Shown piece after piece: positions 1 to 53,939 of a stretch of DNA of 64,000 bases. The stretch lies in NCBI RefSeq assembly GCF_046105845.1, contig NZ_CP151004.1; one strand, written 5' to 3'. Origin of the DNA: Escherichia coli (GTDB taxonomy: Bacteria; Pseudomonadota; Gammaproteobacteria; Enterobacterales; Enterobacteriaceae). The notes under the pieces are model-generated. The model was not told the origin of the DNA, did no database searches, and saw only the letters and a program-made list of their open reading frames with translations. Made by a program: the position numbers and the translations under genes. The stretch's first letter is position 1. Each line of letters starts with the position of its first letter.

Positions 1-177
1 GGTCTGGATAGTCAGCGCATTTGCCGGACAAGCACAGGCGCAGGCACCACAGGCAATACATTGGCTGGGCATCAGGTCCGGTTTCCCGCGAAAGCCTGGG
101 CTGACCTCCAGTGGCGCGAAGGGATATTTCACCGTCGCGGTTCCGGCGCGCATAATAGTTTTCAGTAACTTCAGCAT
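1..177 (-). CDS. hyfH: Hydrogenase-4 component H (HyfH), N-terminal part only; gene continues beyond window start
   Basis: Minus-strand translation from ATG at 177..175 reads [20 protein letters not shown]...[12 protein letters not shown] (4Fe-4S ferredoxin cysteine motif); begins 9 bp after hyfG stop. Confidence 0.85.
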
Positions 178-186
178 CTTCTGTCC

Positions 187-1902
187 TTACTTCAGCGGCG
201 AACGGTTACGATCAATGCCGTAGCGTTCGATCTCTTTATACGGCACGGTTTTTGACTGGCGCTTGCGCACATCAACCAGCGTCACACGGTCGGTACAGGA
301 GTAGCAGGGATCAAGGCTACCGATAATTAGCGGTGCGTCAGAAACGGTATTGCCGCGCAGCATGTAACGCAGCACTGGCCAGTTGGCGTAGGTGGCGGCA
401 CGACAGCGCCAGCGGAACAATTTTTGGTTATCACCGAGCATGCTCCAGTGCACGTCTTCACCGCGTGGCGCTTCAACAAAGCCCAGCGCGAATGCGTGAG
501 GTTTATAGCTAAAGCCTTCGGTCAGCAGTGGGGTATCCGGCATGTTGTCGAGGGCAAATTCCAGCATTGCCAGCGAATCAAACGTCTCTTTGACACGGAC
601 CATCACGCGGGAGAAGACATCGCCGCCGGTAAAGGTAAACAGCGTTTTGGGAATATTGCCGTAGTCGGCGTAGGGGTGATCAAAGCGCAAATCACGGGCA
701 AAACCACTGCCGCGGATCAGCGGCCCGACAGGGCTATAATCACGGGCGATTTGTCGGTCGAGAATGCCAATGCCCTGAGTGCGTTGTTCCATATTCGGCG
801 TGGCAAGCAGCATCTCTACCAGCTCCGACACGTCGGCGCGCATCTCGCGCACCAGTTTCAGCGTTTGCAGACGTTGCTCTTTGAGAATATCGCGGCGAAC
901 ACCACCAATCAGATTCAGACCGTAGGTTTTACGCGACCCGGTCAGCAATTCCGCCATCGTCATCGACTTTTCCCGCACGCGGAAAAATTGCATAAAGCCG
1001 GTATCAAATCCAACAAAATGGCAGGAGAGGCCAAGGTTGAGCAAATGACTATGCAGCCGTTCGACTTCCAGCAGAATCGAGCGAATAGTATGCGCTCGTT
1101 GCGGCACCTCAATCCCCAGTGCATTTTCAACCGAGTTGGTATAGGCCACACTGTGGGCAAAACCGCAAATCCCACACACGCGGTCGGATAAGAAGGTCAC
1201 TTCGTTGTAGCCCATCCGCGTTTCTGCCAGTTTCTCCATGCCGCGATGGACATAAAACAGGCGGTAATCAGCATCGACAATTTGCTCGCCATCCACAAAC
1301 AAGCGGAAGTGACCTGGTTCATCGGAGGTGATATGCAGCGGGCCGACAGGGATCACCCGCGCATCGCTGTTGCCCTCGTTGATAAACGGATACGTTTCGG
1401 TATCAGTCGTCGGTTCTGGGCGCAGTCGATAATCCATCGCGTCTTTGCGCAGCGGATGCATATCTTCCGGCCAGTCATCGGGCAACACCAGCCGACGCTG
1501 ATCCGGCAGGCCAACCGGAATCAGCCCGTACATATCGCGAATTTCTCGCTCGCCCCAGACCGCGGCAGGGACGCGCGGTGTGACTGACGGAAACTCCCGA
1601 CTGTCGGCATCGACCAGTGCCTTCACCACAATCCAGCATTTTTCGGCCCCTTCCATAGAAAGGGCGTAATAAACCGCGTAATGACCGTTAAGTGTCCGCT
1701 CGTCGTTGCCAAACAGGACCGGAAGCCAGCCATCATGTTGATAATAAAGATAATGTACAACGTCAGGCAGCAGATTGATTTTCACCGTAATGGTGACCTG
1801 TTCAGGCGTTTGTCGCTCTTCATCCAGCACCGCGCCGGGGAACTGCGTTTTCAGGGCGGCGAGAATCGCTTCGCCACGATTTGACGATGAATTAACGTTC
1901 AC
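187..1902 (-). CDS. hyfG: Hydrogenase-4 large NiFe catalytic subunit HyfG
   Basis: ORF in track (187..1947); NiFe large-subunit motifs DRVCGICG and C-terminal DPCYSCTDR; start placed at GTG 1902 preceded by GGAGA, overlapping hyfF stop; exact start uncertain. Confidence 0.88.
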
Positions 1903-3472
1903 TGTGTTTCTCCGAAACAGATGCGGTGCCTGAAGGCAAAAAATCATGCCAGGTGCTACGTTGTGCAGGCAGGTCGTGCGTCCCTGAGAGGACTATAGTG
2001 GAAGCGCCTGCCAGGATCCTGATGACAGGTTGTGGAATATGCGTTCCCATCGCCAGCATCATGACCAGCAGAATCACCATTGGCGAGGTGGTCAACCAGC
2101 CAAGTTCACCCCGGTTAACGGCCTGCGGCGGTTTCGCCATTAACACCCGCGCAGCCATCCGTACCAGGCCCGCCAGCACCAGCGTTAACAGCAATAACAG
2201 CAGGACGATAAGCAGCAGATGATTACGCGCCAGTCCGGCGGTAACGGTCATAAATTCGCTAAGAAAAATGTTGAAGGGCGGCATCCCGGCCAGCGCCAGC
2301 GCACCGCCGCCAAACAACACGGCGGTAAATGGCATGATTTTGAGCATCCCACAGACGACGTTGAGATCGCGCGTGCCGTACTTGAGCAGTACATTGCCGG
2401 AACCGCAGAACAACAGCGTTTTGGCCAGACTGTGGTTTAAGGTGTGCAGCAGCGCGGCAAAAATTCCCAGCGGCCCGCCAATGCCTAACGCCACCGCGAC
2501 CAGTCCCATGTTCTCCACGCTGGAGTACGCCAGCAGACGCTTAATGTCCCGCTGTACCAGAATGAAAAATGCCGCCACGGCAACCGACAACATGCCGAAG
2601 ATGAGCAACAACCGGTTGGGGAAATCGCTGCCGATGGCCTGGCAAATAATGATGTAATAGCGAATCAGCACCAACAGCGCGCAGTTCAGCAATACGGCGG
2701 AGAGCAGGGCGCTGACCGGACTCGGCGCTTCACTGTGAGCATCCGGCAGCCAGGCGTGCATGGGAAATAGCCCGGTTTTGGTGCCAAAGCCAATTAGCAC
2801 AAACACAAAGGCCAACAGCATTAATGTTGGGTCAAGCAAGGACGATTGCTTAAGAACCTCGCTCCAGAATATCGCCATTTCTGCCTGCGGCATAACGCTG
2901 GCGGCGTTGGCGTATACCAGCACGGTACCGAACAGACCAAAAGCGACACCAACAGTACAAATAATGATGTACTTCCATGCAGCTTCCAGCGATGAACGCT
3001 GACCGTAAATGCCTACCAGAAACGCCGAGCTTAAGGTGGTGGCTTCGATCGCCGCCCACATCACAATCAGGTTATTGCTGGTAACAACCAGCAGCATGGT
3101 GAACAAAAACAGATGGAAGAAACCGTAGTAATCGCACAGCGTAACGGGTGAAAGCTCGCCGTGCTCCACTTCATGACGCATGTAGCCAATCGAGTAAACA
3201 CCGGTGAGAAAGCCAATCACACCAAGAATGGCGAGGAACAAACCGCCCAGACCATCAATATGAAGCCACAGTCCCGCAGCGAATATTTCTCCCGCATCAG
3301 CGGCAGTTTGGACCACCCAGAGTGCCAGAATCAGCAGCAGTGTGATCCCTAAGCTATGTAATACTGTCACCGCGCAAGTCGCAGAGTGCCCCCGTTTCCG
3401 GCAGGCAAAACAGAGCAGCGAAAAAAGCAGCGGCGTGAGCAGGAGTAAAGCGAACATCACAGAATAACTCAT
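1892..3472 (-). CDS. hyfF: Hydrogenase-4 membrane subunit HyfF (complex I antiporter-like)
   Basis: 526 aa polytopic membrane ORF, position in hyf operon, NuoN/NuoM-like sequence. Confidence 0.92.
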
Positions 3473-3476
3473 CTCA

Positions 3477-4127
3477 TTATCCCTTCAGCGCGGTCAAGTT
3501 GTTCACGTCCAGCGTGCCGTGGGTACGCCATATTTTTCTTGCCAGTAACACCATCACAATGACGGCGAAGATGGCGTCGGTAGCGATACCAATTTCCACC
3601 AGTTCCGGTGCACGCCAGGCTAGAAGCGCCAGCACCAGATGGGAGCCGTTTTCCATCAGGCAGTAACCAAAGATTTGCCGCAGGATATTGCGCTGGCTGA
3701 CAATGCACAGCAGGCCAAGCAGAAAATGACCTAACGCTACCGCCAGCGCCGGTTTCAGCCCGGTAGCCATCGGTAGCTTCACGGGCTGAACGACAAATGC
3801 GCAAAGCAGGACAATTAACGCCGCGAGCAGTGCCATCATTGCCGGACCGAATAACGCTTTTTCCGGGATATTCTGGGGAATATTTCGTGCAGCGTAAGTC
3901 ATGATTAACGGTACCAGCAGCACTTTGGTGATAAAGGCGCTGGCGGACCAGATCAGCAGTTGCTCTGCGGCGAACAGGCACGAGAGAGTGGCGAAAATAG
4001 ACACCAGCACCAGCGACTGGCAGGCGTAAAATCCGCATGACAGGCGATAGCTTTTGACGCTAATCACAAACAGCGATGTCAGCATCATCAGTCCCGCCAG
4101 ATTATTTACGATCATAGAACCGGTCAT
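3477..4127 (-). CDS. hyfE: Hydrogenase-4 membrane subunit HyfE
   Basis: 216 aa hydrophobic ORF between hyfF and hyfD. Confidence 0.9.
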
Positions 4128-4138
4128 TCATCATCTCC

Positions 4139-5578
4139 TTACTGCAACCAGGTCGCGGCGATTACGCTGGAAATCAGCGACATCACAATCAGTACAATCA
4201 ACACCAGGCGCATTGATCCTGGCAGCGGTGCGGCATCGGCGACGGCCTCGCTCGGTTTGCCAGGCACGACGCGACCAAACCAGCGAATAAACCAGGCGAA
4301 ACTGGCGACCGATTCAATCATCAGCAGAATCATGGCGGGCAGCAGGATCCAGTACTCCACTGACAACGCAAAACCGGCGGCAAACAGCGGGAATTTACTG
4401 AAGAAGCCGTTGAACGGCGGTACGCCGGTAATCGCCAGCGCTGCCACGCAGAAACCCACGCCTGGCAACGGCAGGGTGTGCAATACGCCACGCAGACGCG
4501 GCAACAAGCGCGTGCCGCAGCTGTAACTCAGCGCACCTGCTACAAGGAAAAACAGGCTTTTAGCGAACGCGTGGTTGACGATGTAGGCGATGCTACCCTC
4601 CAGCGCCAGCCGCGAGCCGAAGATGGAGAGCGACAAGCCGAAGAACATCCAGCCAAGTTGAGTGATGGTCGACCAGGCCAGCAACCGCTTCATATCCTGC
4701 TGTGGCAAATACATCAGGAAGCCGTAAAGAATGGTGACCAGTGCCATAACCATGCCAACGCCGCCAATCACATGCGGGATATTGCCGCCGTCGATAATGG
4801 CACGGGCAAAAATGTAAACGCCCACTTTCACCATCGATGCGGCGTGGAGATAGGCGCTGATCGGTGTTGGCGCTTCCATTGCGTCCGGTAGCCACGCTTG
4901 CATCGGTAGCTGGGCCGATTTCCCCCACGCGGCAAACAGGATGCCGCCATAAACCAGATAACGTGCGTCGCCGTGTAACTCGCTCATCGCGCTAAGCGCA
5001 AACGTTCCGGTCTGCAAAAACAGCGTGGCGGCGGCAAGATACAACCCCAGCGAACCGATATGAGTGATAAGTAACGCTTTTAGTGCTGAACGCTGCGCTT
5101 TATCGCTCTGGTAATAACTGATCAACGCCCAGGAGCAGCCGCCCGTAATTTCAAAAAACAACAACTGACCGAGCAGCGTCGAGGAGAGTACCAGTCCCGC
5201 CATCGCGCCGATAAAAACCAGCAAAAATGCGTAATAACGATTCGTGCCGTTATGCGGGTGTTCGCGATTTTTATCCGTCAGATAACCCGTGGAGTAGATC
5301 GTGACCAGCAAACCGAGAAACACCACCACAAACAGAATCAGCGTACTCACGCGATCAATGACCAGGCCAAACAACGCCACATCCCCCACGTTGACCAACG
5401 TCAACGTGACGGCAACTTTATCGGCCTGATAAAACGCGGAGATCAGTGACAACATGCACAGCGTGGTCAGCGCGGCGAACAAAACCCCCCATTCGGCGGC
5501 CCGACGTTGTGGCGAAAACGAAACGACCAGTGCGCCGATAAAAGGCAGCATTAACGTCGTCAGAGCAAGATTTTCCAT
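4139..5578 (-). CDS. hyfD: Hydrogenase-4 membrane subunit HyfD (antiporter-like)
   Basis: 479 aa polytopic ORF with NuoL/M-like sequence (WLPDAMEAPTP). Confidence 0.92.
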   Translation of the reverse strand: MENLALTTLMLPFIGALVVSFSPQRRAAEWGVLFAALTTLCMLSLISAFYQADKVAVTLTLVNVGDVALFGLVIDRVSTLILFVVVFLGLLVTIYSTGYLTDKNREHPHNGTNRYYAFLLVFIGAMAGLVLSSTLLGQLLFFEITGGCSWALISYYQSDKAQRSALKALLITHIGSLGLYLAAATLFLQTGTFALSAMSELHGDARYLVYGGILFAAWGKSAQLPMQAWLPDAMEAPTPISAYLHAASMVKVGVYIFARAIIDGGNIPHVIGGVGMVMALVTILYGFLMYLPQQDMKRLLAWSTITQLGWMFFGLSLSIFGSRLALEGSIAYIVNHAFAKSLFFLVAGALSYSCGTRLLPRLRGVLHTLPLPGVGFCVAALAITGVPPFNGFFSKFPLFAAGFALSVEYWILLPAMILLMIESVASFAWFIRWFGRVVPGKPSEAVADAAPLPGSMRLVLIVLIVMSLISSVIAATWLQ

Positions 5579-5594
5579 ATTCCGTCAGTGCTCC

Positions 5595-6542
5595 TTACAG
5601 ACCGGTTAACCAGAAGACCCATGCAAGCGCAGCAAGGCTGAAGCCAAGCCAGGTCACATGGTGAATGAGTAAAAAACGCCCGCGTGCCAGCGTGTTTTCT
5701 GCGATTGAGGCCAGTACAAAAATCAGCAAAACCTTGAGCAGCGTAACGACAAGAGAAGTCAGCAGGCAGGCGAGAGAAAGTTCTTGCGCGCGCCCAAAGG
5801 GCAGAAACAGGGCCACAAACAGTGCTGCCATCACGACCTGTTTCAGCCCCAGCCCCCATTTCGCCAGCGCCAGCCCGGCACCGGAATATTCGGTCAGCGG
5901 GCCTTCCTGTAATTCCTGTTCTGCTTCAGCAACATCAAAGGGAATTTTTCCCATCTCAATGAAGCAGGCAAAACCACAGGCCAGTAACGCCAGTACGGTG
6001 GTTAGCGGCGAGTTCCAGCCCGTCGCCAGCGTCTTGCTGATCATCTCGATATGCGTGGAATCCGCTATCAGCGCCAATACCAGCAGTGAGAGAATGAGCA
6101 TGGGTTCGACCAGAATGCCGAGCGTCAACTCGCGACTGGCACCGACTCCCGCAAACGGGCTTCCGGTATCCAGCCCTGAAAGAGCAAAGAAAAAACGAAA
6201 CAGGGCAAGAAGATAGATAAGGGTGATCAGATCGCCGCCGCCCGCAAAAGGGGAAACGGTAATAAATAGTGGCAGGGCCATCGCCAGCACCAGCATGCTG
6301 CTGATTAATACCCACGGCATCAGGCGGAACATCAGACCTGAAGATGTCGGCGCAACTTCCTGGCGTTTAAACAGTTTGTGGATATCGCGATAATCCTGCC
6401 AGATCCCCGGTCCGCGACGGGAGTGCATTCGCGCGCGTATCTGCCGGGAAATACCCGTAAAAAGCGGGGTTAGCATCAGCAGAATCACGGCCTGTGCTAA
6501 CGCAAAAATGACCAGATATCCGTCGCAAAGAGTTTGTCTCAT
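5595..6542 (-). CDS. hyfC: Hydrogenase-4 membrane subunit HyfC (NuoH/HycD-like)
   Basis: Track ORF 5595..6563; start moved to ATG 6542 (MRQTL...), 315 aa, 11 bp after hyfB stop. Confidence 0.9.
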   Translation of the reverse strand: MRQTLCDGYLVIFALAQAVILLMLTPLFTGISRQIRARMHSRRGPGIWQDYRDIHKLFKRQEVAPTSSGLMFRLMPWVLISSMLVLAMALPLFITVSPFAGGGDLITLIYLLALFRFFFALSGLDTGSPFAGVGASRELTLGILVEPMLILSLLVLALIADSTHIEMISKTLATGWNSPLTTVLALLACGFACFIEMGKIPFDVAEAEQELQEGPLTEYSGAGLALAKWGLGLKQVVMAALFVALFLPFGRAQELSLACLLTSLVVTLLKVLLIFVLASIAENTLARGRFLLIHHVTWLGFSLAALAWVFWLTGL

Positions 6543-6552
6543 GGTGATTTCC

Positions 6553-8571
6553 TTAGACGGCAATAGCGATTAGCAGCACAACCAGTGCGGCGACCACATA
6601 CAGGCAATAGAGACGAAAGTCGCCGCTTTGCAGATGCTGTATTTCTTTGGCCAGCCGTTGGGTGGCGCTCACGATGGGGCGGATCACCCGCTCATCCCAG
6701 AAGGGTTCTGTGCTCTGAGCCCTGGCGGTGACATGCGCAAGACCTTTGTTCAGCCTCAGCGTAGGGTCGAGCTGTTGTCGTAGACGAAATAGCGCACAAA
6801 AGACCACACGCAGCGGCTGCATCACGCCATTGCCTGACGGGGCCATCGCATTTTCCCAGCCGTAGCCGCATGCCCAGGCATCTCCTGTGCGACGAAACGC
6901 TGCGCGGCGCGAACGACACCACAGCCAGTAAAGGCCAGGCAGCAAAGGCATCGCCAGTAGTAACAGCAACAGTAATGAGGGAGTGACCCGTGTATGAAAC
7001 GTGCCGGGTACAAGTGCTATTCCGCTGGCGACAGTGACGGGAGGGGTATTGGTAAACGCATGGGCAATGTGCATTATCTTCGGTGCCAGCCAACTGGCAC
7101 TAAGCGCAATTAATATGCAGAGTGCCGCGAGCAGTAGCATGGCGACGATCATCGTATTTGGCACTTCCTGTGCCTCTTCAGCGTGTGTACTGCGCGGCGC
7201 TCCACAGAAAGTAATACCGTACATTTTGACGAAGCACATTACTGCCAGCCCACCAGTGACTGCCAGCATCACCATAGCAATAGGACCCGCAAGTTGTAGC
7301 GCTACGGCTTCCACACGACTTAGTGAGAACAGCGACTGCCAGGTGTACCATTCGCTGATAAAACCATTCAGCGGAGGAATGGCTGATATCGCGAGGCAAC
7401 CAATCAGGCATGCTGCGGCTGTCCACGGCATACGTTTCGCCAGTGCCCCCATTTTTTCCATGTCGTGGGTATGCAAACGCGAAATAATCGCACCCGCGCC
7501 GAGAAACAGCAGCCCTTTGAACAGCGCATGGTTGAGCAGATGAAACAGCGCGCCGAGCAGTCCAACAACGGTGAGCAGCGGGTCGTGCAGTGACAGACCG
7601 ACCATCGCCACACCGACCGCCAGCAAAATAATGCCGACGTTTTCGACGGTACTCCAGGCCAGCAGCCGTTTGATATCCTGTTCCGCCAGCGCATACAGCA
7701 CGCCCAGGAGCGCGGAGATTGCGCCGATCGCCATCACCAGAATGCCCCACCACAGCGGCAAACCCGTTTGCGCCAGCAGGTCCATCGCTACTTTCAGGAT
7801 GCCGAAAATACCGATTTTGACCATTACGCCAGACATCAACGCCGAAGCGTGCGATGGTGCGGCAGGGTGAGCGCGTGGCAACCAGCTGTGCAACGGCATC
7901 ATCCCGGCTTTCGCGCCAAAACCGAAGAAGGCCAGCAGGAACACCGCCGACGCCAGCCCCGGAGAAAGTGAAAGCGTGCGGAAACTGGCAAAATCGAGGC
8001 TGCCGCTTTCGCGCCACATCAGCAAGAAGGCGATCATAATCAGCACCGATCCGGCGTGGGCGATAAAAAAGTAGAGCATGCCAGCGTTGATCGACGTTTT
8101 ATCCTGCCTGGCAATGACCAGAAACCAGGAAGACAGCGACATCATTTCAAACAGCACGATGAACCAAAAAGCGTTGTCCATCACCAGCAGGGCAACCATC
8201 GATGCGATGAAAATATTCATAAAGAAGCCCATCGCCGCCGCGCCTTTGCCCTCGTATTCGCGCATATAAGTCAATGAATAGAGCGAACAAACTACCACCA
8301 GCAAGGAGATAACCAGCACCATAAATGCCGAGAGGCTATCCATTCGCAGGGTTAAATCGGCAAAGTCAAAAGGGGTTGCAAAACGGGCGACTAAAGTTAC
8401 GCCTGCATGTAATTGCGTAATTCCGCTGATGATGCCAATCACGCCGCCCACCAGCGATGTGATGCCGGAAAGCTTAATAGCCAGTCTGTCCAGACCGAGT
8501 AAAAACAGCGAAGCCAGACTGGCAAACAGATAGAGAATCAGCGACCAGGTTAATAATTGCAGGGCATCCAT
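6553..8571 (-). CDS. hyfB: Hydrogenase-4 membrane subunit HyfB (NuoL/HycC-like)
   Basis: 672 aa polytopic ORF, antiporter-like motifs (WLPRAHPAAPS). Confidence 0.93.
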   Translation of the reverse strand: MDALQLLTWSLILYLFASLASLFLLGLDRLAIKLSGITSLVGGVIGIISGITQLHAGVTLVARFATPFDFADLTLRMDSLSAFMVLVISLLVVVCSLYSLTYMREYEGKGAAAMGFFMNIFIASMVALLVMDNAFWFIVLFEMMSLSSWFLVIARQDKTSINAGMLYFFIAHAGSVLIMIAFLLMWRESGSLDFASFRTLSLSPGLASAVFLLAFFGFGAKAGMMPLHSWLPRAHPAAPSHASALMSGVMVKIGIFGILKVAMDLLAQTGLPLWWGILVMAIGAISALLGVLYALAEQDIKRLLAWSTVENVGIILLAVGVAMVGLSLHDPLLTVVGLLGALFHLLNHALFKGLLFLGAGAIISRLHTHDMEKMGALAKRMPWTAAACLIGCLAISAIPPLNGFISEWYTWQSLFSLSRVEAVALQLAGPIAMVMLAVTGGLAVMCFVKMYGITFCGAPRSTHAEEAQEVPNTMIVAMLLLAALCILIALSASWLAPKIMHIAHAFTNTPPVTVASGIALVPGTFHTRVTPSLLLLLLLAMPLLPGLYWLWCRSRRAAFRRTGDAWACGYGWENAMAPSGNGVMQPLRVVFCALFRLRQQLDPTLRLNKGLAHVTARAQSTEPFWDERVIRPIVSATQRLAKEIQHLQSGDFRLYCLYVVAALVVLLIAIAV

Positions 8572-9188
8572 TAGCGTTGCTCCTGAGTGAGGGAAAGGGG
8601 ATCCTCCTCGCCATTGGCAAACCAGCTTGCGGCAAGGCGCTGTTTTTCTTTCATCTGACGTTGCAGGCTATCGTCGGTGATCAGCCGTAACGCCTGATTC
8701 GGGCAAGCGCGAACGCAGGCCGGACCTTCTGGCAAGAAATCACACAGGTCGCATTTCACCGCGACGGTCTGGACACCCGGTTCCCAGCGCAGCAAAGCAT
8801 GTTGTGTTGGCGCGTTTTCTTCGCCGTCTTTGAGTGAGCCTTCAGCCTGAAAAACATATTGCGCAGGGGCATTCACCGGACGGCTTCCTGAAGCGCTGAT
8901 TGCGCCAAATGGGCAGACCACGGCGCAAAGCTTGCAGCCAATACAGAGGCTTTCGTTGAGTTGGATCGCATCATCCCTCTGGGAGATGGCATTGACCGGG
9001 CAGACCTGCAGGCAAGGGGCTTCCTCACAGTGATGACACACGACAGGGGCAGTGAGTGTTGACGTCTTCGCCAGGGCCAGGCGCGGGTGTTGCTGTAAAC
9101 CTTGCGTTTTATGCACGTCCGAACAGGCAGCGAGACAGGTATTACATCCTGTACACCACAGTGGTTCGGCCACCACAAAGCGGTTCAT
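8571..9188 (-). CDS. hyfA: Hydrogenase-4 ferredoxin-type Fe-S subunit HyfA
   Basis: Multiple CxxCxxCxxxCP motifs (CTGCNTCLAACS, CHHCEEAPCLQVCP, CIGCKLCAVVCP); ATG 9188 preceded by AAGGAG. Confidence 0.93.
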   Translation of the reverse strand: MNRFVVAEPLWCTGCNTCLAACSDVHKTQGLQQHPRLALAKTSTLTAPVVCHHCEEAPCLQVCPVNAISQRDDAIQLNESLCIGCKLCAVVCPFGAISASGSRPVNAPAQYVFQAEGSLKDGEENAPTQHALLRWEPGVQTVAVKCDLCDFLPEGPACVRACPNQALRLITDDSLQRQMKEKQRLAASWFANGEEDPLSLTQEQR

Positions 9189-9229
9189 GTCGGCTCCTTG
9201 AAAATGATATGAAACATTGCATTTCATAT

Positions 9230-9246
9230 TGCATAAAGGATGCCAG
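9230..9246 (-). promoter_or_regulatory. Sigma-54 (-24/-12) promoter of the hyf operon
   Basis: Minus strand reads cTGGCATcctttaTGCA, matching TGGCAC-N5-TTGCA with GG and GC correctly spaced; about 40 bp upstream of hyfA ATG; hyf is known to be sigma-54 dependent. Confidence 0.7.
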
Positions 9247-9340
9247 TCTTATTAATTTAATATATTCAATAAGTTATGAATTAACTGGATTCTGAACGGT
9301 ACAAAAATGATGGTCATTAACGTTCAGCAAAAAATGGATT

Positions 9341-9385
9341 CGACACCCGTGTCGCAGGGGAAAGTGAGAATGTGATCTTGGTCAC
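9341..9385 (-). promoter_or_regulatory. Candidate upstream activator sites (two short inverted repeats) for the hyf sigma-54 promoter
   Basis: cgacacCCgtgtcg (9341..9354) and gtgaTCTTGGtcac (9372..9385), roughly 100-140 bp upstream of the -24 element; inference only. Confidence 0.3.
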
Positions 9386-9440
9386 GAGAAGTGAGGTGTG
9401 CTGACCACAAGCGCAGCCAGCACGGAATGGAGCAAAGTAA

Positions 9441-9911
9441 TCAGGCGTGTTCTTTCAGCCAGTTCAGCACAACGTCGTGGTGATTGCTGGTTTTGAAATC
9501 GTCAAAGACATGTTCGATTTTGCCATCAGCGTCAATCAGGAAGCTGATGCGATGAATACCATCGTAGGTTTTGCCCATGAAGGACTTTTCACCCCAGACG
9601 CCGAATTGTTCGCACACCTGGTGGTCCTCATCAGACAGGAGCGTAAAGTTAAGCAGCTCTTTTTCCGCAAAACGGGAGAGTTTTTCGGGTTTATCGGTGC
9701 TGATACCCAGCACATCAACGCCCGCTTTTTTCAACTCATCCATGTTATCGCGTAAGCCGCAGGCCTGTACGGTACAGCCGGGGGTCATGGCTTTCGGGTA
9801 GAAATAAACCAGAACACGCTGTCCCTGGAAGTCGGTCAAATTAACTTGTTCTCCGTCTTGATCCGGCAAGCTAAATTTCGGTGCGATATCACCGGCTTTC
9901 AGTGGATTCAT
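9441..9911 (-). CDS. bcp: Thiol peroxidase Bcp (peroxiredoxin)
   Basis: 156 aa; MNPLKAGDIAPKFSLPDQDGEQV... with peroxidatic Cys context (PGCT). Confidence 0.95.
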   Translation of the reverse strand: MNPLKAGDIAPKFSLPDQDGEQVNLTDFQGQRVLVYFYPKAMTPGCTVQACGLRDNMDELKKAGVDVLGISTDKPEKLSRFAEKELLNFTLLSDEDHQVCEQFGVWGEKSFMGKTYDGIHRISFLIDADGKIEHVFDDFKTSNHHDVVLNWLKEHA

Positions 9912-10483
9912 TACTTAACTCCATCCTGTTCATCATGTTGGGAATAATTGACGACGTTAATACTGCCTTGTGCATTGAGTTCTGTACATAGGGCTTTGAA
10001 TGCTTGCTCAATATTTGCTGAGTCCGCAGATGCGGGGCTGTGGGCGGTTATCTGAATATGCAACTGCGCAGCCCGTTTATTTTCAGCAGGTTGCGTGCGC
10101 GACACCAGCTCCGCAATGTTCATATGATGCGCGTCGAAAAGTGCTGTGAAGCGTTCAATTAAATGCGGGGAGTCTGCCACATCGACCTGAACCCAGACAG
10201 ATGCTGGCATTGGCGGACGCGGACGCGCCGTCGTGCGCTTCATCACGATTAAAAGATCCAGCTCGGCACCTTTCAACGGTAACGTTGATTCAATCAGAGT
10301 AATGGCATTCCATGAACCGGAAAGCAGCATGATAAACGTGAACTCTTCTCCCAGCATCGCCAGGCGACTGTCTTCAATATTACAGCCGCAACTACTGACA
10401 TGACGGGTGATGGTGTTCACAATTCCAGGGCGATCGGCACCCAACGCAGTGATCACCAGATAATGTTGCGATGACAGTGTCAA
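9911..10483 (-). CDS. gcvR: Glycine cleavage system transcriptional repressor GcvR
   Basis: Start placed at TTG 10483 giving 190 aa (TLSSQHYLVITALGADRPGIV...); the track ORF is an upstream extension. Confidence 0.88.
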   Translation of the reverse strand: MTLSSQHYLVITALGADRPGIVNTITRHVSSCGCNIEDSRLAMLGEEFTFIMLLSGSWNAITLIESTLPLKGAELDLLIVMKRTTARPRPPMPASVWVQVDVADSPHLIERFTALFDAHHMNIAELVSRTQPAENKRAAQLHIQITAHSPASADSANIEQAFKALCTELNAQGSINVVNYSQHDEQDGVK

Positions 10484-10628
10484 ACTGGTTATTCCTTTAA
10501 GGGGTGAGTTGTTCTTAAGGAAAGCATAAAAAAAACATGCATACAACAATCAGAACGGTTCTGTCTGCTTGCTTTTAATGCCATACCAAACGTACCATTG
10601 AGACACTTGTTTGCACAGAGGATGGCCC

Positions 10629-11507
10629 ATGTTCACGGGAAGTATTGTCGCGATTGTTACTCCGATGGATGAAAAAGGTAATGTCTGTCGGGCTAGCTTG
10701 AAAAAACTGATTGATTATCATGTCGCCAGCGGTACTTCGGCGATCGTTTCTGTTGGCACCACTGGCGAGTCCGCTACCTTAAATCATGACGAACATGCTG
10801 ATGTGGTGATGATGACGCTGGAGCTGGCTGACGGGCGCATTCCGGTGATTGCCGGGACCGGCGCTAACGCTACTGCGGAAGCCATTAGCCTGACGCAGCG
10901 CTTCAATGACAGTGGTATCGTCGGCTGCCTGACGGTAACCCCTTACTACAATCGTCCGTCGCAAGAAGGTTTGTATCAGCATTTCAAAGCCATCGCTGAA
11001 CATACTGACCTGCCGCAAATTCTGTATAATGTGCCGTCCCGGACTGGCTGCGATCTGCTCCCGGAAACGGTGGGCCGTCTGGCGAAAGTAAAAAATATTA
11101 TCGGAATCAAAGAGGCAACAGGGAACTTAACGCGTGTAAACCAGATCAAAGAGCTGGTTTCAGATGATTTTGTTCTGCTGAGCGGCGATGATGCGAGCGC
11201 GCTGGACTTCATGCAATTAGGCGGTCATGGGGTTATTTCCGTTACGGCTAACGTCGCAGCGCGTGATATGGCCCAGATGTGCAAACTGGCAGCAGAAGGG
11301 CATTTTGCCGAGGCACGCGTTATTAATCAGCGTCTGATGCCATTACACAACAAACTATTTGTCGAACCCAATCCAATCCCGGTGAAATGGGCATGTAAGG
11401 AACTGGGTCTTGTGGCGACCGATACGCTGCGCCTGCCAATGACACCAATCACCGACAGTGGTCGTGAGACGGTCAGAGCGGCGCTTAAGCATGCCGGTTT
11501 GCTGTAA
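10629..11507 (+). CDS. dapA: 4-hydroxy-tetrahydrodipicolinate synthase DapA
   Basis: 292 aa from ATG 10629 ([17 protein letters not shown]...). Confidence 0.96.
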
Positions 11508-11523
11508 AGTTTAGGGAGATTTG

Positions 11524-12558
11524 ATGGCTTACTCTGTTCAAAAGTCGCGCCTGGCAAAGGTTGCGGGTGTTTCGCTTGTTTTATTACTCGCTGCCTGTAG
11601 TTCTGACTCACGCTATAAGCGTCAGGTCAGTGGTGATGAAGCCTACCTGGAAGCGGCACCGCTTGCGGAGCTTCATGCCCCGGCTGGAATGATTTTGCCG
11701 GTGACCTCCGGTGATTATGCAATCCCGGTGACCAACGGTAGTGGTGCTGTCGGTAAGGCGCTGGACATTCGTCCACCAGCCCAGCCGCTGGCACTGGTTT
11801 CTGGCGCGCGTACCCAGTTCACGGGCGATACCGCTTCATTGCTGGTGGAAAATGGTCGTGGCAATACTCTGTGGCCGCAGGTGGTTAGCGTGCTGCAGGC
11901 GAAAAACTACACCATCACCCAACGTGATGATGCTGGTCAGACACTGACCACCGATTGGGTACAATGGAACCGTCTGGACGAAGACGAGCAGTATCGTGGT
12001 CGTTATCAAATCTCTGTTAAGCCGCAGGGTTATCAGCAGGCGGTTACGGTTAAACTGCTGAACCTGGAACAGGCGGGCAAACCGGTTGCAGACGCGGCTT
12101 CCATGCAGCGTTACAGCACGGAGATGATGAACGTTATTTCCGCCGGTCTGGATAAATCTGCCACTGACGCCGCGAACGCTGCGCAAAATCGTGCCTCCAC
12201 CACTATGGACGTACAAAGTGCAGCTGATGACACCGGTTTACCAATGCTGGTCGTACGCGGGCCGTTCAATGTGGTTTGGCAACGTCTGCCAGCGGCGCTG
12301 GAAAAAGTGGGCATGAAAGTGACCGACAGCACCCGTTCGCAGGGCAACATGGCCGTAACTTACAAGCCGCTGTCTGACAGCGACTGGCAGGAACTGGGCG
12401 CGAACGATCCAGGCCTGGCATCCGGTGACTATAAACTGCAGGTTGGCGATTTAGATAACCGCAGCAGCCTACAGTTCATCGATCCGAAAGGTCATACTCT
12501 GACTCAGAGTCAGAACGACGCGCTGGTAGCTGTCTTCCAGGCTGCGTTTAGCAAGTAA
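11524..12558 (+). CDS. bamC: Outer membrane protein assembly lipoprotein BamC (NlpB)
   Basis: 344 aa; lipoprotein signal with lipobox LLAACSS; immediately downstream of dapA. Confidence 0.95.
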
Positions 12559-34321: not shown

Positions 34322-34562
34322 CTGAAATATATTAGCAAAGTTTATTACTGAGTTTGCGAATAATAAAAAAAGCAGTATATAAATTATCTCGATATTATTT
34401 TATTTATATTCATGCCTCGCATATGAAAGTTTATTCATAACAGTAAATATCTCTCCATTCTTAGTGATCTACCTCACCTTTTAAACGCGCTTGCCGAATT
34501 TTGTTATTTACTCTGACGAAAAATTGTCACGATACACGAAAGTTTTTCACAGGCGGCGACTC

Positions 34563-34898
34563 ATGGATAAAGAACGCATCATTCAGGAATTTGTGCCCGG
34601 TAAACAGGTCACACTGGCGCATCTCATCGCGCATCCCGGCGAGGAACTGGCGAAGAAAATCGGCGTTCCTGATGCGGGCGCAATCGGCATTATGACGCTA
34701 ACTCCCGGCGAAACGGCGATGATCGCCGGTGATTTAGCACTAAAAGCCGCCGATGTGCATATCGGTTTTCTCGACCGTTTTAGCGGCGCGTTGGTGATTT
34801 ATGGCTCGGTGGGTGCAGTAGAAGAAGCGTTATCACAAACCGTCAGCGGTTTAGGGCGTTTATTAAATTATACGCTTTGTGAAATGACCAAAAGTTAA
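34563..34898 (+). CDS. eutS: Microcompartment shell protein EutS (permuted BMC domain)
   Basis: 111 aa from ATG 34563 ([28 protein letters not shown]...); first gene of eut operon. Confidence 0.93.
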
Positions 34899-34910
34899 TA
34901 CGAGGCATTC

Positions 34911-35390
34911 ATGAAACGAATTGCGTTTGTGGGTACCGTCGGGGCAGGAAAAACAACGTTATTTAATGCGTTGCAGGGAGATTATACCCTCGCCAGAAAA
35001 ACGCAGGCCGTAGAATTTAATGATAAGGGCGATATTGATACGCCGGGTGAATATTTTAGCCATCCCCGCTGGTATCACGCCTTAATTACCACGCTACAGG
35101 ATGTGGACATGCTGATCTATGTCCATGGCGCAAATGACCCGGAAAGCCGATTGCCTGCCGGGTTGCTGGATATTGGCGTCAGCAAACGGCAAATCGCCAT
35201 CATCAGTAAAACGGACATGCCGGATGCTGACGTCGCCGCAACGCGAAAGTTATTGCTTGAGACGGGCTTCGAGGAGCCGATTTTCGAGCTAAACAGCCAC
35301 GACCCGCAAAGCGTGCAGCAACTGGTGGATTATCTGGCATCTCTCACCAAACAGGAGGAAGCAGGTGAAAAAACTCATCACAGCGAATGA
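34911..35390 (+). CDS. eutP: Ethanolamine utilisation protein EutP (P-loop GTPase-like)
   Basis: 159 aa; Walker A GTVGAGKTT. Confidence 0.93.
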   Translation: MKRIAFVGTVGAGKTTLFNALQGDYTLARKTQAVEFNDKGDIDTPGEYFSHPRWYHALITTLQDVDMLIYVHGANDPESRLPAGLLDIGVSKRQIAIISKTDMPDADVAATRKLLLETGFEEPIFELNSHDPQSVQQLVDYLASLTKQEEAGEKTHHSE

Positions 35391-36066
35391 TATTCGTGAA
35401 GCACACGCGCGCGGCGAACAGGCAATGTCCGTGGTTCTGCGCGCCAGCATTATTACCCCGGAAGCCCGTGAAGTGGCAGATCTACTGGGTTTTACCATCA
35501 CTGAATGTGATGAATCGACCCCGGTAACGGCGTCCGTTCCCGCCAGCGTGCCAGCCGATAAAACCGAAAGCCAGCGCATCCGCGAAACCATCATCGCCCA
35601 GCTACCGGAAGGCCAGTTTACCGAAAGCCTGGTCGCGCAGCTGATGGAAAAAGTGATGAAGGAAAAACTGTCGCTGGAGCAGGGTGCAATGCAGCCGAGT
35701 TTCAAATCGGTGACCGGCAAAGGCGGCATCAAAGTTATTGATGGCAGCAGCGTCAAGTTTGGTCGTTTCGACGGCGCACAGCCACACTGCGTCGGATTAA
35801 CGGATCTGGTCACCGGAGACGACGGCAGCAGCATGGCCGCTGGTTTTATGCAGTGGGAGAACGCCTTCTTCCCGTGGACCCTGAACTATGACGAAATCGA
35901 CATGGTACTGGAAGGGGAACTGCACGTTCGCCACGAAGGCGAAACCATGATCGCCAAAGCAGGCGACGTGATGTTTATCCCGAAAGGCTCCAGCATCGAA
36001 TTTGGTACGACATCCAGCGTGAAATTCCTGTATGTCGCCTGGCCGGCTAACTGGCAATCCCTATGA
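35365..36066 (+). CDS. eutQ: Ethanolamine utilisation protein EutQ (cupin-type)
   Basis: 233 aa from GTG 35365; overlaps eutP by 26 bp. Confidence 0.92.
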   Translation: MKKLITANDIREAHARGEQAMSVVLRASIITPEAREVADLLGFTITECDESTPVTASVPASVPADKTESQRIRETIIAQLPEGQFTESLVAQLMEKVMKEKLSLEQGAMQPSFKSVTGKGGIKVIDGSSVKFGRFDGAQPHCVGLTDLVTGDDGSSMAAGFMQWENAFFPWTLNYDEIDMVLEGELHVRHEGETMIAKAGDVMFIPKGSSIEFGTTSSVKFLYVAWPANWQSL

Positions 36067-36866
36067 AAGATTTCATCACCGAAGCATGGCTAAGAGCGAA
36101 CCATACGCTCAGCGAAGGCGCAGAGATCCATCTCCCTGCGGACAGTCGCCTGACGCCCTCTGCCCGGGAGTTGCTGGAAAGCCGCCATCTGCGCATCAAG
36201 TTTATTGACGAGCAGGGCCGCCTGTTTGTTGACGATGAACAGCAGCAGCCGCAGCCCGTTCATGGGCTGACCAGTAGCGATGAACATCCGCAGGCGTGCT
36301 GCGAACTGTGCCGCCAGCCGGTGGCGAAAAAGCCGGATACGCTGACTCACCTGTCGGCGGAAAAAATGGTTGCCAAAAGCGATCCGCGTCTGGGTTTTCG
36401 TGCGGTTCTCGACAGCACCATTGCGCTGGCAGTGTGGCTGCAAATTGAACTGGCGGAACCGTGGCAGCCGTGGCTGGCGGATATCCGTTCGCGTCTTGGC
36501 AACATTATGCGTGCCGATGCGCTGGGGGAACCGCTGGGCGATCAAGCGATTGTCGGGCTTTCTGACGAAGATCTGCACCGGCTTTCTCATCAGCCGTTGC
36601 GTTATCTTGGTCACGATCATCTGGTGCCGGAAGCCAGCCACGGGCGCGATGCGGCGTTGCTGAATCTGCTACGCACCAAAGTGCGGGAAACCGAAACCGT
36701 AGCGGCGCAGGTGTTTATCACCCGCAGCTTTGAAGTATTACGCCCGGACATCTTGCAGGCGCTGAACCGCCTTTCCAGCACGGTCTACGTGATGATGATC
36801 CTGAGCGTAACGAAGCAGCCGCTAACGGTGAAGCAGATCCAACAACGACTGGGGGAAACGCAATGA
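36063..36866 (+). CDS. eutT: Ethanolamine utilisation corrinoid adenosyltransferase EutT
   Basis: 267 aa; start overlaps eutQ stop (ATGA). Confidence 0.92.
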
Positions 36867-37879
36867 TTATTGAACGTTGTCGTGAACTGGCGTTGCGAGC
36901 GCCCGCCACAGTGGTTTTTCCGGATGCGTTAGATCAACGTGTGCTGAAAGCTGCGCAATATTTACATCAACAAGGTCTGGCAACGCCCATTCTGGTCGCC
37001 AATCCGTTTGAACTTCGTCAGTTTGCGCTCAGTCACGGCGTGGCGATGGACGGGCTACAGGTGATAGATCCACATGGCAACCTCGCAATGCGGGAAGAAT
37101 TTGCCCATCGCTGGCTGGCCCGCGCGGGCGAAAAAACGCCGCCGGATGCGCTGGAAAAACTCACCGAACCGCTTATGTTCGCCGCAGCAATGGTCAGCGC
37201 CGGTAAAGCGGATGTCTGTATCGCGGGCAACCTCTCTTCCACGGCGAATGTGCTGCGTGCCGGATTACGCATTATCGGCTTGCAGCCAGGCTGTAAAACG
37301 CTCTCCTCCATTTTCCTGATGCTGCCACAGTACAGTGGCCCCGCATTGGGCTTTGCCGATTGCAGCGTGGTGCCACAGCCGACGGCGGCGCAGTTGGCGG
37401 ATATCGCGCTTGCCAGCGCCGAAACCTGGCGCGCCATCACCGGAGAAGAGCCGCGCGTGGCGATGTTGTCGTTTTCCAGTAACGGCAGCGCCCGTCACCC
37501 CTGCGTTGCCAATGTCCAGCAGGCGACAGAAATCGTCCGTGAGCGCGCGCCGCAGTTGGTAGTCGATGGCGAGTTGCAGTTTGACGCCGCCTTCGTGCCG
37601 GAAGTGGCGGCGCAAAAAGCGCCTGCCAGCCCGCTACAAGGCAAGGCCAATGTGATGGTTTTTCCGTCGCTGGAAGCCGGAAATATTGGCTACAAAATCG
37701 CACAACGACTCGGCGGATATCGTGCCGTCGGGCCATTGATACAAGGACTTGCCGCGCCGATGCACGATCTCTCTCGTGGTTGTAGCGTGCAGGAAATTAT
37801 CGAGCTGGCGCTGGTGGCAGCTGTGCCGCGTCAGACAGAAGTAAACCGTGAAAGCAGTTTACAAACACTGGTTGAATGA
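36863..37879 (+). CDS. eutD: Phosphotransacetylase EutD
   Basis: 338 aa PTA-family sequence; start overlaps eutT stop. Confidence 0.93.
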
Positions 37880-37917
37880 ACGGTCCCGTTCTGGACCCTG
37901 ATAAAGAGGAAAGCACA

Positions 37918-38211
37918 ATGGAAGCATTAGGAATGATCGAAACCCGGGGCCTGGTTGCACTGATTGAGGCTTCTGACGCGATGGTTAAAGCTGCGCGCGT
38001 CAAGCTGGTTGGTGTTAAGCAGATTGGCGGCGGCCTGTGTACTGCCATGGTTCGTGGTGATGTTGCAGCCTGTAAAGCCGCGACCGACGCAGGTGCTGCA
38101 GCGGCACAGCGTATCGGCGAGCTGGTATCTGTACACGTTATCCCGCGTCCGCACGGCGACCTGGAAGAAGTCTTCCCGATCGGCCTGAAAGGCGATAGCA
38201 GCAACCTGTAA
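37918..38211 (+). CDS. eutM: Major microcompartment shell protein EutM (BMC-H)
   Basis: 97 aa from ATG 37918 preceded by AAGAGGA; [28 protein letters not shown]. Confidence 0.95.
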
Positions 38212-38317
38212 TCACCCTGTGTGACGTCGATTCGGGCGTCACGCTCTCTCCTTTTTCAGTTTACCTTCCGCGGAGGGTAGGGGGAGCTTTTACCTGAAAT
38301 ACGCCACGGAGGCGGGT

Positions 38318-38605
38318 ATGAAACTGGCAGTCGTCACTGGACAAATTGTTTGTACCGTACGCCATCACGGACTGGCGCATGACAAATTGCTGATGGTGGA
38401 AATGATTGATCCACAAGGTAATCCTGACGGGCAATGTGCCGTCGCCATCGACAATATTGGCGCGGGAACCGGGGAGTGGGTGTTGCTGGTGAGTGGCAGT
38501 TCTGCCCGCCAGGCGCATAAAAGCGAAACGTCACCGGTCGATCTGTGCGTGATTGGCATCGTCGATGAGGTGGTGTCTGGCGGTCAGGTAATTTTCCACA
38601 AATAA
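38318..38605 (+). CDS. eutN: Microcompartment vertex protein EutN (BMC-V)
   Basis: 95 aa (MKLAVVTGQIVCTVRHHGLAHDKLLMVEMID...). Confidence 0.94.
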   Translation: MKLAVVTGQIVCTVRHHGLAHDKLLMVEMIDPQGNPDGQCAVAIDNIGAGTGEWVLLVSGSSARQAHKSETSPVDLCVIGIVDEVVSGGQVIFHK

Positions 38606-38616
38606 GGCAGAACATC

Positions 38617-40020
38617 ATGAATCAACAGGATATTGAACAGGTGGTGAAAGCGGTACTGCTGAAAATGCAAAGCAGTGACACGCCGCCCGCCGCCGTTCAT
38701 GAGATAGGCGTTTTCGCGTCCCTGGATGACGCCGTTGCGGCAGCCAAAATTGCCCAGCAAGGGTTAAAGAGCGTGGCAATGCGCCAGTTAGCCATTGCTG
38801 CCATTCGTGAAGCAGGCGAAAAACACGCCAGAGATTTAGCGGAACTTGCCGTCAGTGAAACCGGCATGGGCCGCATCGAAGATAAATTTGCCAAAAACGT
38901 CGCTCAGGCGCGCGGCACACCGGGCGTTGAGTGCCTCTCTCCGCAGGTGCTGACTGGCGACAACGGCCTGACTTTAATTGAAAACGCGCCCTGGGGCGTG
39001 GTGGCTTCGGTGACGCCTTCCACTAACCCGGCGGCAACCGTCATTAATAACGCCATCAGCCTGATTGCCGCGGGCAACAGCGTCATTTTTGCCCCGCATC
39101 CGGCGGCGAAAAAAGTCTCCCAGCGGGCGATCACGCTGCTCAACCAGGCGATTGTTGCCGCAGGCGGGCCGGAAAACTTACTGGTTACTGTGGCCAATCC
39201 GGATATCGAAACCGCGCAACGTTTGTTCAAGTTCCCGGGTATCGGCCTGCTGGTGGTGACCGGCGGCGAAGCGGTAGTGGAAGCGGCGCGTAAACACACC
39301 AATAAACGTCTGATTGCCGCAGGTGCTGGCAACCCGCCGGTAGTGGTGGATGAAACCGCTGACCTCGCCCGTGCAGCTCAGTCCATCGTCAAAGGCGCGT
39401 CTTTCGATAACAACATCATTTGTGCCGACGAAAAGGTACTGATTGTTGTGGATAGCGTAGCCGATGAACTGATGCGTCTGATGGAAGGCCAGCACGCGGT
39501 GAAACTGACCGCAGAGCAGGCGCAGCAGCTACAACCGGTGTTGCTGAAAAATATCGACGAGCGCGGAAAAGGCACCGTCAGCCGTGACTGGGTTGGTCGT
39601 GATGCGGCGAAAATCGCGGCGGCAATCGGCCTTACAGTTCCGGAACAAACGCGACTGCTGTTTGTAGAAACCACCGCAGAACATCCGTTTGCCGTGACCG
39701 AACTGATGATGCCGGTGCTGCCCGTCGTGCGCGTCGCCAACGTGGCGGATGCCATTGCGCTGGCGGTGAAACTGGAAGGCGGTTGCCACCACACGGCGGC
39801 AATGCACTCGCGCAATATCGAGAACATGAACCAGATGGCGAATGCCATTGATACCAGCATTTTCGTTAAGAACGGACCGTGCATTGCCGGGCTGGGGCTG
39901 GGCGGGGAAGGCTGGACCACCATGACCATCACCACGCCAACCGGTGAAGGGGTAACCAGCGCGCGTACGTTTGTCCGTCTGCGTCGCTGTGTATTAGTCG
40001 ATGCGTTTCGCATTGTTTAA
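38617..40020 (+). CDS. eutE: CoA-acylating acetaldehyde dehydrogenase EutE
   Basis: 467 aa aldehyde dehydrogenase-family sequence with active-site Cys context (NNIICADEK). Confidence 0.94.
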   Translation: MNQQDIEQVVKAVLLKMQSSDTPPAAVHEIGVFASLDDAVAAAKIAQQGLKSVAMRQLAIAAIREAGEKHARDLAELAVSETGMGRIEDKFAKNVAQARGTPGVECLSPQVLTGDNGLTLIENAPWGVVASVTPSTNPAATVINNAISLIAAGNSVIFAPHPAAKKVSQRAITLLNQAIVAAGGPENLLVTVANPDIETAQRLFKFPGIGLLVVTGGEAVVEAARKHTNKRLIAAGAGNPPVVVDETADLARAAQSIVKGASFDNNIICADEKVLIVVDSVADELMRLMEGQHAVKLTAEQAQQLQPVLLKNIDERGKGTVSRDWVGRDAAKIAAAIGLTVPEQTRLLFVETTAEHPFAVTELMMPVLPVVRVANVADAIALAVKLEGGCHHTAAMHSRNIENMNQMANAIDTSIFVKNGPCIAGLGLGGEGWTTMTITTPTGEGVTSARTFVRLRRCVLVDAFRIV

Positions 40021-40030
40021 GGAGTAACCG

Positions 40031-42044: not shown

Positions 42045-42050
42045 AAGTGT

Positions 42051-42160
42051 ACGGACAGTCCCCTCGCCCCTTTGGGGAGAGGGTTAGGGTGAGGGGAACA
42101 GAGTCGCGCCGGTGCAAACAATTACCCTCACCCCGGCCCCTCGGCTTCCAGAGTGAGGGA
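42051..42160. repeat. Composite GC-rich palindromic repeat in the eutG-eutH spacer (two inverted units)
   Basis: Unit 1 at 42051..42100 is a near-identical copy of 28658..28707; a second unit in opposite orientation (accctcacccc...gagtgaggg) at 42124..42159. Confidence 0.6.
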
Positions 42161-42213
42161 AAAACCCACTTTCAGCATTGGCAATAAATAACAACTAACA
42201 GGGAGTAAAGGTG

Positions 42214-44840: not shown

Positions 44841-44851
44841 GGGAACGACTT

Positions 44852-46213: not shown

Positions 46214-46233
46214 TGACGCGGAGATAACACATC

Positions 46234-53938: not shown

Positions 53939-53939
53939 A

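Follow-up and report, generated by a model that had tools for sequence, protein, structure and literature searches.

The window analysed here, the 64,000-nucleotide stretch of Escherichia coli contig NZ_CP151004.1, opens inside the hyf operon, the genes for hydrogenase-4 (Hyd-4), or formate hydrogenlyase-2 (FHL-2). The open reading frame (ORF) listing and comparison with annotated genomes place hyf on the minus strand at window positions 1-9188, arranged as follows from the window edge inwards.

1-177, minus strand: hyfH, first 59 of 181 codons, a HycF/NuoI-like ferredoxin with two [4Fe-4S] clusters (Pfam Fer4), cut by the window edge
187-1902, minus strand: hyfG, 571 amino acids from a GTG start, the [NiFe] (nickel-iron) large subunit, fused at its N-terminus to a NuoC-like domain
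1892-3472, minus strand: hyfF, antiporter-like subunit of 526 amino acids
3477-4127, minus strand: hyfE, membrane subunit of 216 amino acids, NuoK-like in its C-terminal half
4139-5578, minus strand: hyfD, antiporter-like subunit of 479 amino acids, closest to NuoL
5595-6542, minus strand: hyfC, NuoH/ND1-like membrane anchor of 315 amino acids
6553-8571, minus strand: hyfB, antiporter-like subunit of 672 amino acids, the HycC counterpart
8571-9188, minus strand: hyfA, HycB-like poly-ferredoxin of 205 amino acids with 16 cysteines

Seven of these genes, hyfA to hyfG, are complete, each with a start codon and a terminal stop and with no internal stop or frameshift in either the ORF listing or the alignment with K-12, and hyfG overlaps the 3' end of hyfF by 11 nt. 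An earlier note on this DNA had called hyfA to hyfH full length and free of lesions, which holds for hyfA-hyfG but not for hyfH, whose 59-codon fragment shares 51% identity with HycF residues 1-59. The same note correctly placed hyfR and focB outside the window, although its list was incomplete: hyfI, encoding the NiFe small subunit, and hyfJ also lie beyond the window edge. With hyfH cut and hyfI and hyfJ off the window, the structural gene set within it is thus incomplete. All of these genes (hyfH, hyfI, hyfJ, hyfR and focB) are present at full length in a public contig (L006, GCA_018015415.1) that is 100% identical to the window across all 13,472 overlapping bases. On the other flank hyf is followed by bcp, gcvR, dapA and bamC in the order found in K-12 and other annotated E. 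coli genomes, and the hyfA-to-hyfH order adjoining bcp holds in the window.

The identification of the locus as the described Hyd-4/FHL-2 operon, with an enlarged membrane arm resembling that of complex I, is borne out by synteny, by Pfam domains and by the match of HyfG to HycE. Annotated hyf operons are syntenic with the window at 99.2% nucleotide identity, and all seven complete proteins occur verbatim in public collections, so that a chance pattern can be dismissed; the exact HyfG, HyfE and HyfD sequences are each found on at least 1000 public contigs. Hyf is an already known system with annotations in thousands of genomes, and the window holds no Hyf protein allele that is not already public. 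Its physiological role in E. coli is indeed, as the earlier note held, unresolved in the literature (PMC7384014, PMC7654741). As a separate observation, the exact HyfB allele is rare, occurring on four public contigs (the longest of 4,744,735 bp), and that of HyfF on 11. The best complete-genome match over 12 kb reaches only 99.2%, with its mismatches evenly spread, which together with the rare HyfB and HyfF alleles suggests that this hyf region is mosaic and poorly represented among complete genomes.

The subunits carry the domains and residues expected of such a complex. Pfam Proton_antipo_M (PF00361) is found in HyfB, HyfD and HyfF (each with an E-value of about 1e-54 to 1e-56), as the earlier note's three antiporter-like subunits would require, PF00146 in HyfC and PF00420 in HyfE, while HyfA and HyfH are ferredoxin-like. 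HyfB retains E142, K221, K252, K352 and E407, HyfD retains E143, K220, K251, K340 and K395, and HyfF retains E143, K232, K351 and E406, so each has the Glu of transmembrane helix (TM) 5 paired with the Lys of TM7 and the Glu or Lys of TM12 that characterize complex-I antiporter-like subunits. The membrane arm therefore has the make-up of hyf/FHL-2, with three antiporter-like subunits plus a NuoH-like and a NuoK-like one. HyfG in turn contains the Pfam domains Complex1_30kDa (residues 39-155), Complex1_49kDa and NiFeSe_Hases, and both of its previously noted NiFe-binding motifs are present.

1162-1185, minus strand: DRVCGICG, N-terminal NiFe motif, HyfG residues 240-247, with C243 and C246 corresponding to HycE C241 and C244
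286-312, minus strand: DPCYSCTDR, C-terminal NiFe motif, HyfG residues 531-539, with C533 and C536 corresponding to HycE C531 and C534

A 32-residue tail follows R539, as at the HycE cleavage site, and HyfG keeps the canopy and proton-path residues H286, R397, E439, R480 and D531 (H284, R395, E437, R478 and D529 in HycE). With its two cysteine pairs, its NuoC-/NuoD-like fusion, these residues and the tail, HyfG has the full set of features that defines the large subunit of a group 4a [NiFe]-hydrogenase.

Compared with formate hydrogenlyase-1 (FHL-1, hydrogenase-3; hycBCDEFG, PDB 7Z0S and 7Z0T), Hyf has the same NiFe ligands, canopy and proton-path residues and 32-residue tail. HyfG is 72% identical to HycE (PDB 7z0s_E, E=2e-292), and lower identities connect HyfC to HycD (52%), HyfA to HycB (48%) and HyfB to HycC (36% over about 600 residues). 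HyfD, HyfE and HyfF are the membrane subunits with no hyc counterpart. The earlier note had listed HyfB, HyfD and HyfF as additional to hyc; HyfD and HyfF are, but HyfB, being the counterpart of HycC, was wrongly included, and HyfE was left out. HyfB does differ from HycC in having the TM7 lysine K221 where HycC has Leu208 (PMC9474812). Unlike hyc, hyf has no hycA-like gene at its promoter-proximal end, nor, in related hyf loci that are fully sequenced, is there a hycI-like protease gene after hyfJ. Complex I (NuoH, J, K, L, M, N and NuoCD) has Pfam families in common with Hyf, with 34% identity between HyfD and NuoL and 28% between HyfF and NuoM, and shares with it both the antiporter-like Glu/Lys residues and the GPxxRGSG motif of the 49-kDa subunit; Hyf differs in having a NiFe site in place of the quinone site and in lacking an NADH-oxidising module. 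The closest functional precedents are the FHL-2 complexes of Pectobacterium atrosepticum and Trabulsiella guamensis, which according to the published work have the same five-subunit membrane arm and are experimentally active formate hydrogenlyases (PMC7384014 for Pectobacterium). Their clusters differ from the window in carrying their own protease gene, hyfK, and in the arrangement of their regulators, and that of Trabulsiella has no focB.

The K-12 operon (hyfABCDEFGHIJR-focB, b2481-b2492) sits at the same bcp locus and agrees with the window in gene order and in the lengths of HyfA to HyfF, at 98.1-99.1% nucleotide identity per gene. Across HyfA-G there are 31 amino-acid substitutions (0 to 12 in each of HyfA to HyfF, with HyfE identical). 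The exception is HyfG, which has 571 amino acids in the window and 555 in K-12, owing to a single 48-bp in-frame difference that removes residues 386-401. The earlier note had proposed an alignment with K-12 hyf as a check for strain-specific lesions; this found none in hyfA-G of the window, but K-12 fails as the intact reference, since it is the K-12 hyfG that carries a deletion. Two features describe the difference.

700-747, minus strand: 48-bp segment encoding HyfG 386-401, including R397 (712-714), absent from K-12-type hyfG
738-747 (inside the 48-bp segment) and 690-699, minus strand: the two copies of the 10-bp direct repeat GCCCGTGATT that bracket the K-12-type deletion

The K-12 counterpart of window 700-747 (locus L002, 13618-13677) has its deletion between the two GCCCGTGATT copies, an arrangement which suggests that the K-12 state arose by in-frame deletion mediated by the repeat. 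All of the approximately 110 homologues in other genera, the most distant at 73% identity, keep the segment, and it was missing only from the deletion-type sequences of E. coli. A Pectobacterium homologue, P0106, is about 81% identical to the window HyfG. HycE has ARDFSNVGPMVRASGH at the corresponding position. Ten of the 16 columns are invariant over 24 homologues of 72-89% identity, and the core of the segment, GPxxRGSG, recurs in the Pyrococcus membrane-bound hydrogenase (MBH) and in the 49-kDa subunit of complex I. Moreover, HyfG R397 aligns with HycE R395 (the numbering was confirmed on the K-12 HycE sequence), so that K-12 HyfG has no equivalent of a residue which, together with H284, E437, R478 and D529, is assigned to a putative proton pathway leading to the HycE active site; FHL, MBH, soluble hydrogenases and complex I all conserve this pathway (PMC9474812). 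On these comparisons the 571-residue hyfG of the window is evidently the ancestral allele and the 555-residue K-12 allele the derived deletion. For the structural comparison we relied on the paper describing the solved HycE structure; an AlphaFold2 model of HyfG built from a 24-sequence alignment was discarded (mean predicted local distance difference test score, pLDDT, 57.8, with the 16-residue segment below 50). Our literature search found no account of the hyfG deletion, of hyf pseudogenes or of decay inside hyf, and nothing pertinent on hyf in O157, with the limit that the 1997 operon paper and the 2002/2004 regulation papers fell outside it and may note the gap relative to HycE. The hyf loss reported in the papers searched is that of the whole operon in the F/G/B2 lineage (PMC6896753).

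Population counts were made over 5426 complete E. coli genomes, 4294 of which carry hyf. The full-length segment is present in 2179 of the 5426, and the K-12 deletion junction in 2115 of the 4294 hyf-carrying genomes, including MG1655, BW25113, MC4100 and BL21; in a further 1132 of the 5426 the part of hyfG that covers the segment is missing. Other inactivating lesions were surveyed in 23 genomes sampled down the match lists, by reading RefSeq pseudogene flags and then re-deriving each lesion by alignment to an intact reference. Recurrent single-base deletions occur in hyfB (nt 591), hyfD (nt 89 and nt 434), hyfI (nt 348), hyfH (nt 269 and nt 280) and focB (nt 18), and a 208-bp deletion at nt 758 of hyfD is likewise recurrent. 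Identical lesions are seen in many strains, combined differently. In the whole collection, exact 60-mers specific to a lesion match at least 1257 genomes for hyfB nt 591, at least 996 for hyfD nt 89 and at least 683 for hyfI nt 348, and the junction of the 208-bp hyfD deletion matches 863. Sequencing error in homopolymers was rejected as the source of the lesions at hyfB nt 591, hyfD nt 434, hyfI nt 348, focB nt 18 and hyfH nt 269, although hyfD nt 89 lies in a run of six G and may be explained in this way. Because most recurrent lesions fall outside homopolymers and appear in independent assemblies, they are best seen as inherited and recombined. Genomes with an intact hyf are in the minority among the E. 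coli sequenced so far. Taken across the survey, inactivating lesions were seen in hyfB, hyfC, hyfD, hyfF, hyfH, hyfI, hyfR and focB (loci L011-L014, L018-L024 and L027-L030), and strain GD33 has an IS421 insertion at hyfA.

Whether the 48-bp deletion itself matters can be questioned. The 16-residue indel might be neutral, K-12 Hyd-4 as competent as the full-length enzyme, and the contrast between strains a product of demography or recombination. The deletion is in frame, its 2115 carriers keep the whole operon, and in K-12 and AR_0011 it is the only lesion. The first four deletion genomes, all four of which had extra lesions, had suggested that such lesions occur only together with the 48-bp deletion; this was refuted by lesioned operons with a full-length hyfG in 2018-06-4CC, SCEC020022, SCU-106, GD33 and 300444, and those in the first four of these strains imply that decay has other causes besides the deletion, one of which may have come earlier. 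Against neutrality, every non-E. coli homologue examined retains the segment, its motif is conserved as far as mitochondrial complex I, and its arginine lies on the proposed HycE proton path (PMC9474812). We consider a neutral indel quite improbable, the more so in light of the selection test that follows.

Clustering of hyfA-G in 27 sequences (the 23 surveyed genomes and four public contigs that share the window HyfF allele) resolves two haplogroups. That of the window, which includes VCSW5, O157:H7, PapM-32-1, 7/2, RIVM_C039629 and CDE6306, has a full-length hyfG in all members and only sporadic, private lesions. That of K-12 includes BL21, O111:H8 and O45:H2, and in each of its 15 members hyf is affected by the 48-bp deletion, by one or more frameshifts or stops, or by the two together; four of them have a full-length hyfG, yet are lesioned elsewhere in hyf. 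Since lesions also accompany a full-length hyfG, the association is with the hyf haplogroup and not strictly with the deletion. Within the window haplogroup two private lesions were seen: one relative (L007, 4372-4902) has lost 87 bp of hyfA, in frame, from between two copies of GGTCTGCCC, and another, 0.21% from the window (L009, 11571-13285), has a 1-bp deletion in hyfG that shortens a run of five A to four. Sporadic loss thus also takes place in an otherwise intact haplogroup.

Nonsynonymous and synonymous polymorphisms (N/S) private to each haplogroup were then compared by Fisher test. Over the 12 operon genes, hyfA-focB, the window haplogroup has 127/277 (0.46) and the K-12 haplogroup 126/125 (1.01; p = 2e-6), and for hyfG alone the counts are 4/36 and 13/16, respectively. 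The flanking genes yfgO, bepA, arsC and bcp give 13/74 in the window haplogroup and 6/28 in that of K-12 (p = 0.78). With no such difference in the flanking genes, the raised N/S of the K-12 haplogroup is specific to hyf, which also tells against demography or recombination behind a neutral indel. Constraint on hyf is, by these counts, apparently relaxed in the K-12 haplogroup, while the window haplogroup, in hyfG above all, has far fewer nonsynonymous changes. A search for coding changes fixed between the haplogroups returned three fixed differences, all synonymous, and so no single founding coding lesion was found.

Taken together, these comparisons lead us to the reading, to which we give a probability of roughly 0.8, that the window holds the promoter-proximal two-thirds of an uninterrupted, ancestral hyf operon that likely still yields an active enzyme, and that the K-12-type operon is decaying. 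This part of the operon encodes most of Hyd-4, which supplies the hydrogenase component of FHL-2. By homology to the FHL-1 structure (PMC9474812) and to the FHL-2 of Pectobacterium and Trabulsiella, a formate dehydrogenase encoded at another locus would supply the electrons, which would travel through the [4Fe-4S] clusters of HyfA, HyfH and HyfI to the HyfG NiFe site and reduce protons to H2 there. HyfC would anchor this soluble arm to the membrane arm of HyfB, HyfD, HyfE and HyfF, and the latter could couple turnover to ion translocation, with which the retained Glu and Lys residues are compatible.

Several points weigh against this reading. The genes hyfI, hyfJ, hyfR and focB lie outside the window and their apparent condition is read from the L006 contig. 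FHL-2 activity has been shown for Pectobacterium and Trabulsiella and not for any E. coli Hyf. No dedicated protease gene belongs to hyf (PMC7384014), and in K-12 expression is poor and exchanging the promoter yielded no H2 (PMC7654741), so factors beyond the hyfG deletion may also block activity. The test drew on the very 27 sequences from which the haplogroups had been delimited, a small sample that is not phylogenetically independent. Finally, the hyf N/S of 0.46 in the window haplogroup exceeds the 0.18 of its flanking genes, which indicates weaker constraint on hyf than on housekeeping genes.

Some of these observations could also be taken to mean that hyf in the source strain is intact yet functionally silent, spared from lesions only because there has been too little time to acquire them, and that no active hydrogenase is made under any condition. 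The missing maturation protease, the poor K-12 expression and the lack of H2 even behind hyc or T5 promoters (PMC7384014, PMC7654741) would all fit such a state, as would the private lesions already carried by close relatives in hyfG (L009) and hyfA (L007) and the elevated N/S just mentioned. However, the K-12 experiments all used the 555-residue hyfG and have no bearing on the full-length allele, the 4 nonsynonymous against 36 synonymous changes in hyfG of the window haplogroup suggest continuing constraint, and E. coli HycI is able to mature the large subunit of Pectobacterium Hyd-4 (PMC7654741). We regard silence of this kind as somewhat unlikely, and prefer the view that the window operon likely still yields an active enzyme.

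A different question is what reaction such an enzyme would carry out. Hyf might be active without being a formate hydrogenlyase, using another electron donor or working in the H2-oxidising or CO2-reducing direction, possibly linked to the membrane potential. There is no formate dehydrogenase gene in or adjoining the operon, published work does not agree on the conditions for Hyd-4 action, and residual Hyd-4-dependent H2 in Pectobacterium without FdhF has suggested an alternative donor (PMC7384014). Yet the operon ends, in the related locus, with the formate-channel gene focB and with the gene for the regulator HyfR, a protein containing GAF and sigma-54-activator Pfam domains, and the FHL-2 of both Pectobacterium and Trabulsiella disproportionate formate. 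HyfH moreover conserves the HycF metal-binding motif and the arginine at the FdhF interface (PMC9474812), in the part of HyfH that lies off the window. A role other than formate hydrogenlyase seems to us improbable, and the assignment of the window operon to an active formate-dependent complex remains the one we favour.

The comparison between the window and K-12 bears on previous work. Finney et al. saw no Hyd-4-dependent H2 in MG1655 and MC4100 backgrounds despite the use of the hyc or T5 promoter or a swap of the HycE tail, and make no mention of missing HyfG residues (PMC7654741); both backgrounds are carriers of the 48-bp deletion. We tentatively suggest, at something short of even odds, that an intact hyf encodes an active, possibly ion-translocating FHL-2 and that the K-12-type operon, under study since the late 1990s, is a natural loss-of-function version, which would explain the missing Hyd-4 activity of MG1655 and MC4100. 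Almost all work on Hyd-4 has been done on a reference strain that has the deletion in hyfG and whose hyf haplogroup shows both a relaxation of constraint and repeated frameshifts. Should the deletion abolish activity, a simple genetic cause would account for decades of E. coli Hyd-4 results that were negative or disputed, and energy conservation by a complex-I-like FHL would become directly testable in strains with an intact hyf or in a repaired K-12. What the comparison adds is a candidate explanation, open to direct test, of why Hyd-4 is silent in laboratory strains.

Upstream of hyfA two further features were found.

9230-9245, minus strand: sigma-54-type -24/-12 element, TGGCATCCTTTATGCA, which stops 41 nt short of the hyfA ATG on its 5' side and is conserved with K-12
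9341-9354, minus strand: inverted repeat CGACAC-GG-GTGTCG with a T-rich run after it, in the bcp-hyfA intergenic region and about 100 nt upstream of the sigma-54-type element

In a search across the window, matches to the sigma-54 pattern were no more frequent than chance, so the assignment of the first feature as a candidate promoter draws on its position and on the literature, in which the dependence of hyf on sigma-54 and HyfR is given through a reference cited in PMC7384014. A sigma-70 promoter scan upstream of hyfA found nothing. Immediately 5' of the -24 TGGCA element the window has C (position 9246), and K-12 with nearly all of its haplogroup has A, a further difference of K-12 hyf from that of the window besides the 16 missing HyfG residues, the extra lesions of its haplogroup and the higher N/S there. 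Upstream of hyfA, most K-12-haplogroup sequences differ from the window haplogroup at four positions, of which 9246 is one. Two A/G differences (window 9256 and 9258) lie in the AT-rich stretch just above the -24 element, and the window base at 9250 is common only to VCSW5 and two close relatives. The inverted repeat at 9341-9354 could be a bcp terminator or a binding site for an activator (HyfR or FhlA). An Rfam scan of window positions 1-12000 gave no RNA family match.

Elsewhere, the window differs from VCSW5 at 52965-55328, where it has no IS200C copy and about 1.2 kb of extra sequence (53973-55157). The latter falls inside a 462-codon minus-strand ORF that resembles a serine hydrolase or penicillin-binding protein and is probably yfeW. 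Outside this stretch the 64 kb run colinear with VCSW5, at 97.3-98.6% identity. The operon for ethanolamine utilisation (eut), at about 34500-49400, appears uninterrupted, as judged from colinearity with locus L010 and the VCSW5 annotation; the K-12 eut operon is interrupted by the CPZ-55 prophage.

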